Below the pieces are notes generated by a model. That model did no database searches, was not told the origin of the DNA, and saw only the letters and a program-made list of their open reading frames with translations. The translations under genes were made by a program, and so were the position numbers. Of a stretch of DNA of 60,654 nt, positions 2,431 to 42,993 are shown piece by piece. The stretch lies in contig CAYUTR010000001.1 of the NCBI GenBank assembly GCA_964447465.1, positions 1-60,654 on the forward strand, read 5' to 3'. Each line of letters starts with the position of its first letter. Positions within the stretch are counted from its first letter, which is position 1. Source of the DNA: an uncultured Chryseobacterium sp. Lineage in GTDB: Bacteria; Bacteroidota; Bacteroidia; Palsa-965.

Positions 2431-3591
2431 ATGAAAAAGAAAATCATGCTTCTCGGTTCCGGCGAACTCGGAAAAGAATTTACAATCGCTGCGAAACGTC
2501 TCGGTCAACACGTAATTGCTGTTGATTCATATGATGATGCTCCCGCGATGCAGGTTGCTGATGAGCGCGAGGTGATCAACATGCTCGATGGAAATGCGCT
2601 AGATGCAATTGTAGAGAAGCACCGTCCTGATTTAATTGTTCCTGAGATTGAAGCAATTCGCACTGAACGTTTTTACGATTACGAATCGAAAGGAATACAA
2701 GTTGTGCCGAGTGCGAAGGCGGCTAACTTCACGATGAACAGAAAAGCAATCCGTGATCTTGCTGCGAAAGAATTGGGATTACGCACTGCGAAATACGATT
2801 ACGCAACAACTCTCGAACAATTCCGCGAAGCGATTGATGCGATCGGAATTCCATGTGTTGTGAAACCGCTGATGTCTTCATCCGGAAAAGGTCAGAGCGT
2901 TATAAAGTCCTACGACGACATCGACAAAGCATGGCAATACGCTATGAGCGGCACACGTGGCGATCTTCTCGAAGTAATCGTAGAAGCATTCGTGAAGTTT
3001 GAATCGGAAATCACGTTGCTCACGGTTACACAGAAAAGTGGCAACACACTTTTCTGTCCGCCGATCGGTCACAGACAAGAGCGTGGTGATTACCAGGAAA
3101 GCTGGATGCCACATCCGATGACGAATGCACATTTGAACGAAGCAGAGGAGATGGCCGGAAAAGTTACGCGCGCTTTAGGTGGAGCAGGATTGTGGGGAGT
3201 AGAATTCTTTCTCGCAGAAGATGGAGTTTATTTCTCTGAACTTTCACCACGTCCGCATGATACAGGAATGGTGACATTAGCGAATACACTTCCGTTGAAT
3301 GAATTTGAATTGCATTTGCGTGCAGTACTCGGCATGCCGATTCCTGATATTTCATTGCAGCGTGCGGGAGCAAGCGCCGTAATTCTCGCGAACAAAGAAG
3401 GTGTTCCGCACATTACCGGAATTGAAGACGCGCTGAACGAAGCGTTGGTCGATGTGAAAATTTTCGGCAAACCTGTTACGCGTCCGTATCGTCGCATGGC
3501 TGTTGCACTTGCGTGGGACAAGCCGGGCACGGATGTGAAATTGCTGGTTGCAAAAGCACAAGCGGTTGCCGCGAAAGTGAAGGTGCATTGA
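2431..3591 (+). CDS. purT: formate-dependent phosphoribosylglycinamide formyltransferase (GAR transformylase 2)
   Basis: Near-collinear resemblance to E. coli PurT as I recall it: [81 protein letters not shown]. Confidence 0.95.
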
Positions 3592-36229: not shown

Positions 36230-39200
36230 TTATTCTTCATCCAGTTCTAGCATAAGCAAAATTGCCTCCGCTTCCAGTTCCAATTCTCTTTCGAGCAGCG
36301 TTTCATCTTCTACCACTTCGGGCAGCATTTCAAGGTCAGGGAAACTTTCCTGTTCCTGTTTGTCTGTGAACTCCTTGTAAATCTTATCAAACTGCAATGG
36401 AGTGACCGCGACAGAAGTGCCTAAATCGCTCTCCAAAATTTCCAGCACTTCTTTAAGTTTAGTTGAATCGAAATAGGCAACCATCTTATCGCTTTGCTTG
36501 CTGAAGTTGTTATCGTCAATGAGCTTCAATAGGTTTTCATTCAGAAATATTTCACCTCCCTTGCTCTTTGTTCCTGAAACAACTACCATGAAACGTCCGT
36601 CACGTCGGAACAACGAAAGATGTTTTCCGATCACCACATGACCTCCTTCTACTAATGATTGTAAAATGGAATATGCTTTTGTTGCAGGAACAGCTACACC
36701 TTTTTCTGCGTCTTCATCCGGAGTCCAGTATTCAGGCATAAGGATTCCTTTTGCAACAGATCCGTCTTTGGTAGTGTAGTTGATGAGTTTGCCCCGGTAG
36801 CGACCAAGGGCCTGAAGAATATTTCCAGTAATAATGTACCTGCTTGCCCGGTCTGATTGGCGCTTTTGTGTTGTCTCTGACCAAATATCAGCGACCTGTT
36901 CAAAACCTCGCTGTGGTATATCAAAGCTCTCACCCTTTATACGCTGAATTGTCTCAGCCTTACTTGCAGGAATAACCAGGTATCGCAACCCGCTCGCAAT
37001 CGCAAAACGAAGTTTGATAGCACTTGGCGTAAAAGGATTTTTTTGATTTCGGTCAATTCCGAATCCAATGAAGACCGCTAGTATCTTTATCTGCCCTTCG
37101 TCCAGCGTCCTTGCAGGATAGTACAACAAGCGACCAACGTAGAAAAACGCAAGCGTTGATTTGGCAAAGTCGTTCCTACGTTCATAGTTGTATTGGGCTT
37201 TTTCTTCGCGGGATTTACGCTCGTCTTTGATAACTGCTTCCGCCTTATCTAATGCTCTTTCATACACTTCCCATCCATGCTTTTCAAGCATCTTCTTTAA
37301 TCGTGCCGAAGTTTTGAGTTCGTCAATTGAACGTGTGTATTGCTCCTTAGCCTGGAGCAGTTCATCATCAAGCATTTTCTGGCTTGCTGTTTTGAATTCA
37401 TCAAGGAGCATTCTGCTCTGTTCGGTAGCGGACAGTCCATCAAGTGACTGTCGTAGCATTACTCCCAATTCGTCAGCCTTCATCGGCTTACGCAATACAT
37501 TCACTTCGACAGTTTCCAAAACGCTGTCTTTTCCAAAGGAACTTCTTCCACCTCGACCCATTATTAAAACCTTGCGTTGTTTGGTTTCAGCATCGAGCTT
37601 CATTTCCTCAACTTCAAGATCGTATTCGCCGGTTTGCTTCATGTATTCAACATGGTCATTGTACCTCCGAACGACCTCATCATAAAAGTCCTGTTGCTCC
37701 TTTGAAGAAAGAACAGCTACACGACCGGAAACCATGAACGCTGCGTCATCTTTGCCGCGCTTCAGTTCCTTCGGTTCCTTTCCTTCCTTCTCTTTTTCTT
37801 TAAGTCCTAGAGGGTCTTGCAGAGCATCATTTATTTCAGGGTGATCTACCATGTATTCTGTCACGACTAAATCACCATACTTGTTCAGAAAATCAGGCAC
37901 GTCGAGAATCCTCGTACTCTGTTTTTGATTCGATGTTGTGTTCGCGTCCAACGATTTTAACTTTCGTTGAAGCATCATCATCAAGCGTTTTTCCGCAGGA
38001 ATTGCAGACGAAACATAATCGTAGATAGGTTTATATACCTGACCGGTGCGATTGACCCTGCCGCGCTTCTGTACCTCTGTACTAATATCAAGTTCTGGCT
38101 GCAGCACGATCATTACACGTTGCTTCACCTCCTCAAAAGGAACTTTGTCTGTTACGATTGCATGTGCTGATGCGCCTGTTGAACCAGATTGATTGATAAG
38201 CAAGACATCAATTTCATTGTTGTTGAATTTTCGGAAAGCCTCATTGGTAAGAATTTTTTTACGCGGATGGATGCGCCCCATGAGTTTGGTTCGCTTACCA
38301 AATGCTTCTTCCAGGTCAATGCCTGGGAATTCATCTTCAGCGGTGCTTGAAAACTCAATACCGCTTTCTGTTTTCACCTCGTTGAGTTCAACCGAAATTC
38401 TTCGCCCGGTAACTTCAGCAACAGAATATCCGGCCTCACGGATTTTTTTGACAATCACATCAATTGGCGAAATGCTGATCCCGGTTGAAACCGTTTCAAT
38501 CTTCTCGATGATATTCCAATATGCAAGTTCCGCCTGTGGCCCGAGTTCTTTGGCCGTAAAGGTTCTTTGTTCAACTCTTCCATTGGGGAGCGTGAGGGTA
38601 TATCGCATGATACTTGATAAACCGCGTTTAAGCACCTCCGAAAAATCAGCGGCGATAACGTCACCAGCTTTAACAGGCTCACCGTCTTCATTCGTCATGG
38701 ACTCAATAAATGCAGCCATTGTGCTGGAAAAAGCGATCACCGGTTTTTTCCCTTCCTTCAGGCGCATGATTGCACGTTCTGCCACCGCGTCAGCCTTAAT
38801 ACTGAAAAGCATTTGATTGATAACATTAAATACCCTTGAGAAGTAAGGGTCATTGCTCACCCCTGCCTGCTTCGTTCCTTTCCGTAACTCAACATTCACG
38901 TTGGCTTCGGCAAGTTCATCATCAAGACGCTTCACTTCCTTGCTTACAAAATCCTCCTGGAAACGGATGGTGTCACGAAGTACTTGGGTAACAGTATCAG
39001 CGATTGCCCGGTGTTCGTCCTCCATCTCGTCGAGGGTAATGTAATTGACTTCTACACCTTCATAAGAACGTTCACGGCGCACCATTTGACCTTCCTTGAC
39101 CAACTCGCTGGAAATAACTTCCTGCAACGGCACACCACCGGCCCTGATTGCCCAAACAAGCTGTTCACGATTCATGTTGCTTTCGCTCATCAGGGTTTTC

Positions 39201-42200
39201 CTTGCATACAATGGGAGGTTTGCAGGTTTCTTTGCGAACGTCGCTGATAGATACAGAACTCCTTTACAATGTGAGATAAGACGCTGAAAGAATGCTCCTG
39301 TATTCCCTTCGCCACTCGCATTGTGTGCCTCATCCATGATGAGAATATTCTTATTAGCAACAGCGTTGAGAAAACGTTGCTTTGCGGAAAGTTCGTTAGA
39401 GCTGAACTGGCTATATGTTGCAAGCAGAAAATTGAATTGCGCGGGAATCTCCGCATCATCAAATATTTCAGCTTGTTCCTTTTGCGAAAGTGCCTCGTAC
39501 ATCGTCTCACCGTATTCATCAAGAATATCAGTTTTGTCGTCCTTAGCATTTACAATAAATGGACGAAGGCTTCCCGATCCGATTGCCTTTAGATCGCGAT
39601 ACAGGTCAGAGAACAGGTTTGGTTTTTCCGTGAGGAAAATTGGCTGATAACCTCGTTTAACCCCATACCGAATTATTGCTGCCGCCACGCGACCTTTACC
39701 AATTCCGGTCTGATCGCCTTCTATTGCTCCCTGTTCTCGGGCTTCGATATTGTAGATGGCAATTGCTACCGCGTCGATCTGTTCGGCTGCCAATGCAGCG
39801 CACAATTCTTTTTTTGATCCGTAGCCTAATCGGTTGCGAACAAATTCATCAATGTCACCACCTATTGCATCATTGACTTTTTGTAATGCCTGGTGCGTTT
39901 CAAAACTCATTGCATCCGGTACAACAGTATCCAGCACAACACAACCCTGGGAAGTAGGAACATAAGTAGCTCCAAGACCGTTCAGGTTTTCCGGTTGGTC
40001 TAGTGACTGAATGCTTTGTACAACAACGTTGTTTCCGAAATTGTCCTTGAAGGAATGTCTTAACTCACTGTCGGCCCAACGTTGAGCAAGATAGTCCGAA
40101 TGAAAAGCCTTGAACGCGACGAATTGAGAATAAGGAGGCGTATTCAGCTTAAAAATGATCTTGTAATTTTGAGCGCGTTCTTTCCTGTGTAGAAAGTCGT
40201 GAACCGCAATTGCTTCGTTAAAGTGTTTTTTGGGTGTAGATCGTTTGTGATCGTCCGCAGGCTTTTCTTCCCAAGTGGATTTTTGTTCTTGCTTTGGCTT
40301 AGTATCATCATCGTCCAAAAGATTAAGGATGCTGCTTGCATCATCTTCAAAATCCTTTTCACTTTTATCGACTTTTATATTTCGGAATAAATCAGGGTAG
40401 CTGATTCGTACATCGTATGGCAATTCTATCCTTTCATCAATCGCCATTTTTACAAAGTTCCTGTGCTGTTCCGTGAATTCTTTTTTTGTTGGAGGGACAC
40501 TATCTTCTGAGTGCAATGTTGTTTGCCAACGGATCCATTCAGTCAGGCTTAAATAGTGTGCGGGAACCATAAAGTTGCGATGCCTCATTACCCGCTTGTA
40601 CAGCTCGTCGAAATCTCTGATCGGTGTATCGAGCTTTTCAGAAAAGGCAGGAGCGGTTGCATCAAATATTCTTTGCCGTTTGGAAATAAGAATCAGTCTT
40701 GCATCAACGCCACTGCCATGACTGGAGTACAATTGTTTGTCAATCGGTATAATATCAATAACCCGGTAGTGCTTATACAGGTAATCAAGGAAGGTGCGAT
40801 TTGCTCCTTTGCTGATACGCCCTTTGCCATCGTAGGAAGTATGTCCGCCGAGTATAATTGCTGCGTTGCCTAAGTCGTGCATACATTCAAGCGCATTCAG
40901 CACCATGATGTGCTCAAGTGATTTTATTTCATAGTCCCCATAGCGAACTGCGTGATCCATTTTGCCGAGCGGAGGATTTGCAAGTACGCAAGCGAACTTT
41001 TTATCAAGGCCAATAAAGGGTTTTGTTGCGTCCTGGCTTGTTACACGGAAATAACCTTGTGTGCGTAGATGCTGAACCCTGAGTTTGTCAACTTCGTTGA
41101 CGATTGTTTTATCAGGAGAGGAAGCAATTGTAAGAAGTCCATTGCCAGCGCAAGGCTCAAAAATGCTTCCGTACATATCAGCTCCTGTAATGATCCCCGC
41201 AAGAAAGGAGATGGGAGCCGGTGTACTCTGCTGCCCTAATAACTTGCTTTGACCTGTGGGATGAAACAAGTTGAGCTGCGAACTGTACAACGATATTAAT
41301 TCATCGTAACGGTTCCGATAGGTCTTCTCCTGGTGCGCTAATTCTCTCGCACAGATTGTAACTGCCAACTCGGTGAGTTCATTGATTAAGTTCTTGTCGG
41401 CGATCTCAAAATCCTCCGCAACGTTTTCGTAATACAAACGACTGCGAACATTTCTCTTTTCAAGATCATTAATTACAAATTCAACGAACTCCCGATGCTC
41501 CTGCTTAAGTTTTTCAAGCGAAAGTCCTTCAAGTGCATCATTATCTTCACCGGTTTCCATGCCGTTTAATGTTTTTGATTGGGTTGGCGCAAATCGCAAA
41601 AGGATTCTGAATATTTCTTCGGCGACTTGCGGGACAATTGCATTTCCTAATCCTTTAAGTCTGTCCAGCCTACGGGGTATCCCATCAGCCACTCTACCCA
41701 CTCCGGGTTCAGTTGGCCATTTGGACGTTTCTGTTTTATAGCTTCCCTTCGCGCCATTGCGGAGAGCGATTTGCTTTGTTGCGAATTTCCCTTTAGCCGG
41801 TACTTGTGTTCGGATGCGGTAGGTGTCGGATAAAACTGAACGAACAGCATAAGGTTTTGCTGTATTTTTTTTCCAGTCCTTCGATGAAAAAGAGTCTGGT
41901 TCCATCTCCTTGGTGTTTCTCCATCCTTGTCCACCATGTCTCTTGCGTTTCTCTCGAACTGCGTTGCCGTTGGTGTAGGCAAGAATCCAAACCCTGTCTC
42001 TCCGATGGGGTGCATCCTTGGCGCAAGCTGGTATAACAAACGTTTCTGTGGTGTAACCTTCATTCTCCAATTGAGAAAGCACTTGGTCGAGTGCCAGGTT
42101 GATGATTCCAGAAACATTTTCACCAATGATGAAACGGGGCCGTACTTCTCTGATAACTCTAAGCATCTCAGGCCAGAGGAAACGGAGGTCTTTTTTCCCT

Positions 42201-42445
42201 TGTTTTTTTCCGGCGACCGAAAAAGGTTGGCAAGGGAAACCGCCTGTGAGGATGTCAATTTTACCCCTGAAAGGTCTTCCCTTAAAGTCTCGTATGTCTT
42301 CAAATCGTTTCGCATCTGGAAAGTTTTTTTCAAGCACTTCTAAACACCATTTATCATTCTCCACCTGGAAAACAGTTTCAATCCCAACGTTCTTCGCGGC
42401 TAGATCGAATCCACCAATACCGGCAAACAGGCTTCCGAGCTTCAT
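36230..42445 (-). CDS. giant fusion: DNA C5-cytosine methyltransferase + N6-adenine methyltransferase + strawberry-notch-like SF2 helicase + ~600-aa unknown C-terminus
   Basis: C5-MTase motifs FAGIGGFD (I), GGFPCQPFS (IV), GENV (VI), RRDRVWI (VIII), GNAIVPQV (X). N6-MTase FEPCAGNG and ANPPLG (residues ~430-495). Helicase GDQTGIGKGRVAAAII (Walker A), IMDEAHNASG (DEAH), LYLSATFA, LLINQSGSTGASAHA, EVQKRGRVNRTGQ (motif VI), resembling strawberry notch. Confidence 0.8.
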   Translation of the reverse strand: MKLGSLFAGIGGFDLAAKNVGIETVFQVENDKWCLEVLEKNFPDAKRFEDIRDFKGRPFRGKIDILTGGFPCQPFSVAGKKQGKKDLRFLWPEMLRVIREVRPRFIIGENVSGIINLALDQVLSQLENEGYTTETFVIPACAKDAPHRRDRVWILAYTNGNAVREKRKRHGGQGWRNTKEMEPDSFSSKDWKKNTAKPYAVRSVLSDTYRIRTQVPAKGKFATKQIALRNGAKGSYKTETSKWPTEPGVGRVADGIPRRLDRLKGLGNAIVPQVAEEIFRILLRFAPTQSKTLNGMETGEDNDALEGLSLEKLKQEHREFVEFVINDLEKRNVRSRLYYENVAEDFEIADKNLINELTELAVTICARELAHQEKTYRNRYDELISLYSSQLNLFHPTGQSKLLGQQSTPAPISFLAGIITGADMYGSIFEPCAGNGLLTIASSPDKTIVNEVDKLRVQHLRTQGYFRVTSQDATKPFIGLDKKFACVLANPPLGKMDHAVRYGDYEIKSLEHIMVLNALECMHDLGNAAIILGGHTSYDGKGRISKGANRTFLDYLYKHYRVIDIIPIDKQLYSSHGSGVDARLILISKRQRIFDATAPAFSEKLDTPIRDFDELYKRVMRHRNFMVPAHYLSLTEWIRWQTTLHSEDSVPPTKKEFTEQHRNFVKMAIDERIELPYDVRISYPDLFRNIKVDKSEKDFEDDASSILNLLDDDDTKPKQEQKSTWEEKPADDHKRSTPKKHFNEAIAVHDFLHRKERAQNYKIIFKLNTPPYSQFVAFKAFHSDYLAQRWADSELRHSFKDNFGNNVVVQSIQSLDQPENLNGLGATYVPTSQGCVVLDTVVPDAMSFETHQALQKVNDAIGGDIDEFVRNRLGYGSKKELCAALAAEQIDAVAIAIYNIEAREQGAIEGDQTGIGKGRVAAAIIRYGVKRGYQPIFLTEKPNLFSDLYRDLKAIGSGSLRPFIVNAKDDKTDILDEYGETMYEALSQKEQAEIFDDAEIPAQFNFLLATYSQFSSNELSAKQRFLNAVANKNILIMDEAHNASGEGNTGAFFQRLISHCKGVLYLSATFAKKPANLPLYARKTLMSESNMNREQLVWAIRAGGVPLQEVISSELVKEGQMVRRERSYEGVEVNYITLDEMEDEHRAIADTVTQVLRDTIRFQEDFVSKEVKRLDDELAEANVNVELRKGTKQAGVSNDPYFSRVFNVINQMLFSIKADAVAERAIMRLKEGKKPVIAFSSTMAAFIESMTNEDGEPVKAGDVIAADFSEVLKRGLSSIMRYTLTLPNGRVEQRTFTAKELGPQAELAYWNIIEKIETVSTGISISPIDVIVKKIREAGYSVAEVTGRRISVELNEVKTESGIEFSSTAEDEFPGIDLEEAFGKRTKLMGRIHPRKKILTNEAFRKFNNNEIDVLLINQSGSTGASAHAIVTDKVPFEEVKQRVMIVLQPELDISTEVQKRGRVNRTGQVYKPIYDYVSSAIPAEKRLMMMLQRKLKSLDANTTSNQKQSTRILDVPDFLNKYGDLVVTEYMVDHPEINDALQDPLGLKEKEKEGKEPKELKRGKDDAAFMVSGRVAVLSSKEQQDFYDEVVRRYNDHVEYMKQTGEYDLEVEEMKLDAETKQRKVLIMGRGGRSSFGKDSVLETVEVNVLRKPMKADELGVMLRQSLDGLSATEQSRMLLDEFKTASQKMLDDELLQAKEQYTRSIDELKTSARLKKMLEKHGWEVYERALDKAEAVIKDERKSREEKAQYNYERRNDFAKSTLAFFYVGRLLYYPARTLDEGQIKILAVFIGFGIDRNQKNPFTPSAIKLRFAIASGLRYLVIPASKAETIQRIKGESFDIPQRGFEQVADIWSETTQKRQSDRASRYIITGNILQALGRYRGKLINYTTKDGSVAKGILMPEYWTPDEDAEKGVAVPATKAYSILQSLVEGGHVVIGKHLSLFRRDGRFMVVVSGTKSKGGEIFLNENLLKLIDDNNFSKQSDKMVAYFDSTKLKEVLEILESDLGTSVAVTPLQFDKIYKEFTDKQEQESFPDLEMLPEVVEDETLLERELELEAEAILLMLELDEE

Positions 42446-42450
42446 GGCTA

Positions 42451-42648
42451 TTATTTATTTTCACGCAACACATTTTCCAAACTATCTGCGCGGTGATGGT
42501 AGTACAACATTTTTTCCACGCACTCCACGCATTCAGGACTCCGATATCCGCCTGATATAATCATGTTCAGCACGAACAGGATACTGCCGATGAAACTCAT
42601 TACCGTTATCCAAAACGAAATCTTAGCACGTTTCTCCTGGGTGAACAT
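42451..42648 (-). CDS. small single-pass membrane protein
   Basis: 65 aa with TM ISFWITVMSFIGSILFVLNMII. Tightly packed between neighbours. Confidence 0.45.
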   Translation of the reverse strand: MFTQEKRAKISFWITVMSFIGSILFVLNMIISGGYRSPECVECVEKMLYYHHRADSLENVLRENK

Positions 42649-42652
42649 GACT

Positions 42653-42973
42653 TCAGGTGTTGTGTGGTTTCTTCAGGTTGTGGGATTTTCTTTTCGGGTC
42701 TTTCAGCAAGCGGAAAATCAGATACGTCCCTGCGTAGCCAGTAAAGAAGGCTTCGAGAAGTCGGTACTTCGGAAAGTATTCGTGAGTCAGGGTAACAGCA
42801 AGTGTCAGGAAGAACAGCGACCAGATCACACCGATCAGGTTTTCGTTGATCCACCTTCTCATGGAAAATTCATTTACACCGATGAGGCGCACAAGTAACA
42901 GACAGATAATACCGATGAAAGCTACAGCCCAATGCAACAGGCCACATGATTCAAGAAAAGTGAGAGTTTTCAT
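42653..42973 (-). CDS. three-TM small membrane protein (holin-like by position)
   Basis: 106 aa, three hydrophobic helices and a basic C-terminus (KDPKRKSHNLKKPHNT), immediately downstream of the lysozyme-like gene. Confidence 0.4.
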   Translation of the reverse strand: MKTLTFLESCGLLHWAVAFIGIICLLLVRLIGVNEFSMRRWINENLIGVIWSLFFLTLAVTLTHEYFPKYRLLEAFFTGYAGTYLIFRLLKDPKRKSHNLKKPHNT

Positions 42974-42993
42974 AGTTAAAATGTTTTTGGGTT

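Follow-up and report, generated by a model that had tools for sequence, protein, structure and literature searches.

We report here that a 60,654-nucleotide (nt) stretch of DNA from an uncultured Chryseobacterium sp. (GenBank assembly GCA_964447465.1, contig CAYUTR010000001.1; the whole stretch is hereafter called the window) appears to encode a two-polypeptide C5-methyltransferase in two overlapping reading frames of one strand. The large chain, which we call alpha, is the N-terminal domain of a 2071-amino-acid (aa) protein whose giant gene is part of a phage-like element. The small chain, beta, is read from a 228-codon open reading frame (ORF) that lies wholly within the giant ORF at an offset of +1 (its first base is nt 112 of the gene, and 112 mod 3 = 1). 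Beta is almost certainly a protein-coding gene under selection. We put the probability at roughly 80% that the locus is a dual-coded methyltransferase of the M.EcoHK31I type, judging from sequence comparison and from analogy with known split enzymes. Beta is probably the subunit that provides target recognition and motif IX, an assignment based on architecture and precedent. The nested C5-methyltransferase layout itself has been proven once, for M.EcoHK31I of E. coli; what is new here is that alpha heads a giant fusion with N6-methylase and helicase parts.

A first-pass annotation made from the sequence had pointed to this same-strand, out-of-frame ORF at 41647-42333 and had considered it unlikely to be open by chance. 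The ORF listing confirmed it on the minus strand at +1, and every peptide quoted for the two frames was found in the translations: LPTPTATQFERNARD, FYPTPTASEHKYRLKG, and then GQLNPEWVEWLMGYPVGWTDLKD at the stop in the nested frame, and TNGNAVREKRKRHGGQGWRNTKE followed by WPTEPGVGRVADGIPRRLDRLKGLGNAIVPQV in the main frame. The TAG of beta lies inside the codons for G-L-G of the alpha peptide GLGNAIV (motif X), also as described. The dual-coded stretch spans about 690 nt, all within the initial ~800 bases of the giant gene. Elsewhere in this gene, the +1 frame has 81 stops in 1802 codons (about 1 per 22), which gives a probability of ~2.6e-5 for 230 stop-free codons; the second-longest +1 open run in the giant gene is 119 codons. 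When synonymous codons were resampled with the main-frame protein held fixed, a run of at least 230 codons had a probability of 0.0025. Both estimates agree with the earlier judgment. The guanine-plus-cytosine content of the window is 44%.

The giant fusion is rare: we found three relatives and read the DNA of two, termed L006 and L007, both of which keep the nested ORF. The L006 protein is 92% identical to that of the window, with a beta of 228 aa. The L007 protein is 53% identical, with a beta of 174 aa, and an in-frame deletion of 54 codons leaves both of its frames intact. The window and L006 align without gaps at 87% nt identity, and we tallied their differences at alpha codon positions 1:2:3. 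The counts were 2:1:13 in codons 1 to 37, before beta begins, and 95:43:544 after codon 330, in the rest of the gene; both are the patterns of ordinary single-frame coding. Where beta overlies motifs IV to VIII (codons 38 to 158), the counts were 6:1:6, and in the stretch between motifs VIII and X (codons 159 to 245), they were 40:14:19. Across codons 201 to 260, the tally of 18:0:2 places the changes on the third position of beta. At alpha third positions, there were 13 differences in codons 1 to 36 and 1 in codons 37 to 144; no other 121-codon segment of the gene had fewer than 24 (Fisher p = 4e-12). The stretch between VIII and X contained 33 changes that were nonsynonymous in alpha and synonymous in beta and 14 of the reverse kind, with amino acid identities of 49% for alpha and 69% for beta. 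Downstream of the beta stop, the alpha third-position pattern resumes.

The comparison with L007 gave the same picture at a greater distance. The third-position rate was 0.23 in the overlap, compared with 0.61 before it and 0.65 after it, and identical residues were encoded by identical codons in 76% of cases in the overlap and in 40 to 44% outside. Taken together, these data show that purifying selection acts on both frames. We also considered a recent recombination patch as the source of the low divergence in the overlap and ruled it out, given that the more distant L007 has the same suppression at synonymous sites. An assembly indel was likewise ruled out, the frame structure being common to three independent assemblies (window, L006, and L007).

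The layout extends far beyond these giant genes. Beta matched phrog_1008, annotated as phage “DNA methyltransferase,” with an E value of 1.4e-31 (aa 23 to 226 on profile positions 35 to 281 of 329). A set of 5.8 billion proteins contained 322 beta matches, and the relatives of beta fell into 10,841 clusters (50% identity) at E ≤ 1e-3 and 2,908 at E ≤ 1e-10. With tblastn, the distal half of beta matched cytosine-methyltransferase genes in 63 phage records. We fetched 80 viral contigs with a profile of the nested protein and found the C-terminal motif in 74. In about 70 of these 74 loci, beta is nested in an alpha ORF, always at alpha+1, and these alpha ORFs contain PCQ, ENV, and GN(A/G/S)x, most of them also F-x-G-x-GG. 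A stricter motif filter retained 40 loci, and in 26 of them, the stop of beta precedes the G of alpha GNA by 2 nt. Paenibacillus phage Bloom has annotations for both overlapping ORFs (BLOOM_56, 1406-2461; BLOOM_57, 1608-2312, in the +1 frame), while the same nested ORF in Lacticaseibacillus phage R23.9 is unannotated. The nested layout is common in phages and rarely annotated, and our literature search found no description of a widespread nested arrangement. Since neither Pfam nor NCBIfam has a model for beta, standard pipelines usually leave it unannotated. To our knowledge, a conserved dual-coded stretch of some 690 nt on one strand is among the longest overlaps in prokaryotic viruses.

Alpha matches the catalytic half of a C5-methyltransferase. 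Its aa 1 to 187 matched Pfam PF00145 (E = 4e-47) over profile positions 1 to 178 of 324, and it also matched TIGR00675 (dcm) and phrog_363 (E = 1e-74). A profile of 38 alpha family sequences aligned with M.HhaI at residues 13 to 179 (motifs I to VIII; E = 1e-37) and weakly at residues 299 to 319 (motif X), with nothing matched between 179 and 299. Against E. coli Dcm, residues 88 to 288 were matched. In these profile comparisons, the stretch of alpha between motifs VIII and X had no match to Dcm or M.HhaI. The main frame therefore comprises the first half of the PF00145 profile plus motif X and is not a full-length canonical monomeric enzyme, although the invariant F-G-GG, PCQ, ENV, R-R, and GN residues are all kept. 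Conservation within the alpha family is strong at aa 1 to 158 and 243 to 275 and almost absent at aa 159 to 242 (0 to 2 on a scale of 0 to 9). In the AlphaFold2 model, aa 1 to 160 have a predicted local distance difference test (pLDDT) score of >90 and the motif X helix is confident, while aa 162 to 250 fall below 50 with no secondary structure. From sequence conservation and the predicted structure, alpha has no folded target-recognition domain (TRD) and no motif IX. A motif IX-like block and a variable, putatively recognition-determining region are found in the other frame.

The beta family is built from a conserved N-terminal module (about aa 25 to 117), variable spacers with [WFL]PTPxA motifs, and a near-invariant GQLNPEWVEWLMGYPxGWT. 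The columns of this last, motif IX-like block are nearly invariant in 65 beta sequences, and the LNPxWVEWLMGYP part sits directly before alpha motif X. The first-pass annotation had likened LMGYP..W to the segment that precedes motif X in canonical enzymes, rightly so: the block lines up with motif IX of Dcm, though with a nonsignificant score (see below). It had also asked whether relatives keep one peptide or the other and whether their +1 frame is closed; the main-frame and +1 peptides are both conserved, and the frame is open. Along the DNA, motifs I to VIII lie in frame 0, the variable region and motif IX in frame +1, and motif X again in frame 0, an order colinear with that of a monomeric enzyme. 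In the window beta, the N-terminal PGSxxA motif is degenerate (RSPEKNKGKK). One beta segment, DKDGETPRRWNQTLFHRRTGKKIQQNLMLF (41834-41941, about aa 131 to 166), recurs in unrelated betas such as P0010 and P0163 (…DKNGEHPTNINQRFYDKKTGRLVQKGL…) and is the best-predicted part of the AlphaFold2 beta model (pLDDT of ~90); it may be a shared recognition submodule.

For the start of beta, we scanned the 22 relatives with a recognizable PGSxxA anchor. An ATG lies 16 to 30 codons upstream of the anchor in 18 of the 22, and 12 of those 18 ATGs are preceded by a GGAG/GAGG-type Shine-Dalgarno (SD) sequence within the alpha coding sequence (background of 10%; P = 1.6e-8). We also took the 40 longest ORFs of the window that begin with ATG, a rough selection with some spurious members: 36 have no SD-like motif, and the leaders of several real genes are A-rich. 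The TTG at 42333 and the ATG at 42315 are both conserved in L006 and L007, and the ATG follows an A-rich tract. From this in-frame ATG, beta would have 222 codons.

The source work on the alpha and beta chains of M.EcoHK31I is reportedly that of Lee, Kam, and Shaw from 1995. In this C5-methyltransferase (E. coli HK31; YGGCCR), beta is encoded wholly within alpha in another frame (PMC2836561, PMC3404938). The enzyme needs both chains and loses its activity when the beta starts are silently removed (PMC2836561; PMC3404938). The N terminus of its beta is needed for association with alpha (PMC2836561). By described architecture, the window locus is alike: the large chain has motifs I to VIII and X without IX, and the small chain is nested on the same strand in the other frame. 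M.EcoHK31I alpha is a protein of about 300 aa, however, whereas alpha in the window forms the N-terminal part of a multi-enzyme protein of 2071 aa, for which we identified no partner restriction enzyme. In a second two-subunit C5-methyltransferase, M.AquI (CYCGRG), the small subunit supplies the distal variable region and motifs IX and X (PMC3404938). The proposed window enzyme resembles it as a split C5-methyltransferase in which the smaller chain holds the variable region and a putative motif IX, but motif X of M.AquI is on the small subunit, unlike in the window. Also close are the phages with phrog_363 and phrog_1008 proteins (Bloom gp56/gp57 and R23.9), which have the same nested +1 arrangement with beta stopping at alpha motif X. 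The phrog_1008 betas share LFP..PGSE.A..MT.TSG, WPTPTA, and LNP.WVEWLMG.P.GWT with the window beta; the identity is about 35 to 43%, and alphas of this type stand alone at ~280 to 350 aa. Genuine dual coding, one of three explanations raised by the first-pass annotation, is accordingly supported by the open and conserved frame in close and distant relatives, by selection on both frames, by the SD-led ATGs, and by the M.EcoHK31I precedent.

On this basis, we propose the following model. Alpha (aa 1 to about 290) would provide the S-adenosylmethionine-binding and catalytic core, consisting of motifs I to VIII plus X, with a putatively disordered tether joining VIII to X in place of a TRD. Beta (~225 aa) would be translated alone from an internal start (ATG 42315 or TTG 42333), ~110 to 130 nt into the gene. 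Since the N terminus of M.EcoHK31I beta is needed for association, the conserved N-terminal module of the window beta is the probable alpha-binding part and would dock on alpha. DNA recognition probably falls to the PTPTA-repeat region as the small domain, and the C-terminal LNPEWVEWLMGYPVGWT would act as motif IX, packing between the TRD and motif X. By analogy with M.EcoHK31I, alpha and beta would assemble noncovalently into an active 5-methylcytosine methylase. Separate translation of beta in the host, its assembly with alpha, its TRD role, and the enzymatic activity are points that we infer. A “methyltransferase” called from the main frame alone would probably be inactive and without a recognizable specificity domain.

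Several observations weigh against this model. Beta and its 65 homologues had no relevant match in Pfam or NCBIfam, and the beta profile had no match among PDB sequences even at E ≤ 10. A methyltransferase profile signal for the nested ORF, proposed earlier as a check, was therefore absent from Pfam and NCBIfam but present as phrog_1008. The AlphaFold2 model of beta alone, made from the 65-sequence alignment, is weak (mean pLDDT of 63; predicted template-modeling score of 0.35), and Foldseek found no PDB match to it better than E = 0.6. In hhalign, the single match between the beta profile and E. coli Dcm placed the invariant block on motif IX (RLTPRECARLMGFE; HRPRRLTPRECARLMGFE) with a nonsignificant E value of 0.31. 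The host is apparently SD-less, and its beta start, though plausible, is a candidate one. The TRD of M.EcoHK31I is assigned to alpha in the literature, whereas in the window, disorder is predicted for the unconserved alpha stretch between VIII and X, and the variable PTPTA region is found in beta. Lastly, the alpha linker is interrupted by a stop in 3 of the ~74 viral loci, which leaves motif X on a short separate ORF, so the connection from alpha through the linker to X is not always kept.

The absence of Pfam, NCBIfam, or PDB similarity, together with a model that matches no known fold, would also suit a beta that is a real separate protein but no methyltransferase subunit; it might act in regulation, anti-restriction, or DNA binding, for instance, and simply happen to overlap the methylase gene. 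Some relatives with long extra repeat arrays or C-terminal extensions (e.g., P0196, with 869 aa) point the same way. We nevertheless consider this unlikely, in that beta almost never occurs apart from the alpha frame, its stop is tied to motif X, and alpha is without exactly what the position and motif of beta would supply. The precedent of M.EcoHK31I also speaks against it, as does a viral locus, L088, in which beta itself carries motif X in frame.

Programmed recoding, another of the earlier suggestions, would shift ribosomes by +1 after motif VIII and by −1 before motif X to yield a single canonical polypeptide of motifs I to VIII, TRD, IX, and X, leaving the upstream part of the nested ORF untranslated. 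The motif order over the two frames, colinear with a monomeric C5-methyltransferase such as M.HhaI, would fit this, and the window has homopolymer runs, e.g., A8 at 41865-41872. Neither L006 nor L007 conserves these runs, though, and we know of no precedent for two consecutive efficient ribosomal shifts. More directly, constraint in the +1 frame sets in at alpha codon 37, precisely where beta begins and about 120 codons ahead of any useful shift site, which argues for a separately translated beta and makes recoding very unlikely; the family-wide conservation of the beta N-terminal module and the SD-led ATGs ahead of beta in relatives count against it as well. We find it scarcely credible that the nested ORF is a nonfunctional by-product, whether a relic of compensating frameshifts, a frame kept open by constraint on the main-frame protein, or, relatedly, an assembly indel. 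The main-frame protein does favor an open +1 frame, with a mean longest run of 105 codons under synonymous resampling. However, the stretch between VIII and X is conserved and third-position patterned in the nested frame and not in the main frame, the frame structure recurs in three independent assemblies, and beta relatives span the 10,841 clusters. The substitution patterns relative to L006 and L007 already largely refute the by-product explanation.

Compensating frameshifts fixed in this lineage, the remaining earlier suggestion, did not hold as stated: the layout is ancient and shared across the family, not confined to one lineage. The order of the frames (I to VIII, then TRD and IX, then X) does suggest that the layout first arose through two frame changes, and to that extent, the suggestion stands. 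We infer an origin in which a monomeric enzyme underwent frame changes followed by overprinting; L088 and the loci with linker stops fit this. In L088 (1933-3295), alpha ends directly after motif VIII (…VWIIAHTNI, then a stop), and a single frame, that of beta (2498-3295), holds the PTP region together with motifs IX and X (RLKQLGNSIVPQVA). This locus is closer to M.AquI than the window is and may be a one-frameshift intermediate. Ahead of motif IV, its alpha reading frame also contains an HNH endonuclease ORF (1989-2501).

A broader hypothesis, which we regard as possible but doubtful, is that beta and not alpha is the specificity subunit throughout, a swappable PTPTA-repeat module in a family of more than 10,000 clusters. 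The layout would have come from a monomer by overprinting through two frame changes, with the L088 type as the one-shift intermediate, and in the window, a giant DarB-like methylase/helicase would have taken up the module as its head. If so, one 6.2-kb gene would encode both a multi-enzyme and a specificity subunit that acts in trans, and the textbook reading of M.EcoHK31I would be revised. Recognizing beta helps to predict phage methylation motifs and anti-restriction capacity and offers a benchmark for gene finders on overlapping genes. It is also of use in engineering split methyltransferases, as has been done with M.EcoHK31I.

Table 1. Coordinates of the alpha and beta features and of the remainder of the giant gene in the window
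Feature	Position	Strand	Remarks
Alpha host ORF	36230..42445	minus	2071 aa; from the ORF listing of the window
Beta nested ORF	41647..42333	minus	228 codons; TTG start; TAG stop at 41647-41649
Alpha, N-terminal C5-methyltransferase catalytic domain	41576..42445	minus	about aa 1-290 of the 2071-aa ORF
Alpha motif I	42410-42427	minus	
Alpha motif IV	42218-42244	minus	GGFPCQPFS
Alpha motif VI	42113-42124	minus	ENV
Alpha motif VIII	41975-42007	minus	
Alpha motif X	within 41624-41719	minus	
Candidate beta start region	42301..42333	minus	TTG 42333 and ATG 42315; A-rich tract before (GCTTGAAAAAAACTTTCCAGATG)
Beta conserved N-terminal module (aa 25-117)	41983..42261	minus	dual-coded with alpha motifs IV-VIII; from the family conservation profile
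Beta variable region/alpha K/R/G-rich unconserved linker (aa 158-242)	41720..41974	minus	
Beta PTPTA motifs (two)	41962-41982 and 41812-41832	minus	
Beta motif GQLNPEWVEWLMGYPVGWT, putative motif IX equivalent	41662..41718	minus	overlaps conserved alpha EPGVGRVADGIPRRLDRL; directly upstream of motif X
Remainder of giant ORF, fused in alpha frame	36230..41575	minus	PF13872, PF13871, PF04851; phrog_14770
N6-methylase-like module	motif at 40964-40981	minus	ANPPLG
Strawberry-notch-like superfamily 2 (SF2) helicase	motif at 39689-39718	minus	Walker A
Giant ORF tail	C-terminal end of the 2071-aa ORF		~450 aa

The three alpha-linker stops (L009:645-951, L014:2344-2656, and L050:1101-1371) are each a single stop in the unconserved linker between VIII and X, with beta intact, and could reflect decay, sequencing error, or a three-piece enzyme. 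Three metagenome gene calls, P0011, P0114, and P0018, begin in the alpha frame (motif I, once up to IV) and then switch to that of beta. Each was called on a single short contig, and they show that databases mix the two frames; the frame hops are probably indel errors or variants. We also sought single-frame relatives among the long beta matches. P0163, P0196, P0132, and P0141 were rejected as monomeric single-frame relatives, being betas lengthened by additional PTP repeats or by extensions at the C terminus.

Within the dual-coded variable region, the A8 run (coding strand) is read as WKKN in alpha and GKKIQ in beta. It is not kept in L006 or L007, could give rise to slippage or sequencing errors, and bears no sign of function. 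Opposite the dual-coded stretch are two antisense ORFs on the plus strand, at 41927-42343 and 42099-42560 (138 and 153 aa), with the same ORFs in L006 at 2949-3347 and 3103-3519. They are probably not genes but a side effect of stop depletion in two sense frames.

Very large single polypeptides with an N6-methylase-like module and an SF2 helicase, the giants of the phage P1 DarB type, occur in phages and mobile elements. Likened to them by general description, the window protein adds the N-terminal C5-methyltransferase alpha domain and the nested beta. Immediately upstream of the giant gene, L006 (1597-2994) and L007 (1257-2995) have a gene of the PAPS-reductase family (PF01507; ~289 aa). In the window, that position lacks the PAPS-reductase gene; two small ORFs (65 and 106 aa) at 42446-42993 are also found in L006 and L007. 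A Bacteroidales metagenome-assembled genome from goat omasum has a single ORF of >4,800 aa (L090:3-14498) that combines an N6-methylase-like module (ANPPFG) with a strawberry-notch-like helicase core. It has no C5-methyltransferase head, and its tail is 32% identical to that of the window protein, indicating that the helicase/N6 module circulates in even larger fusions.

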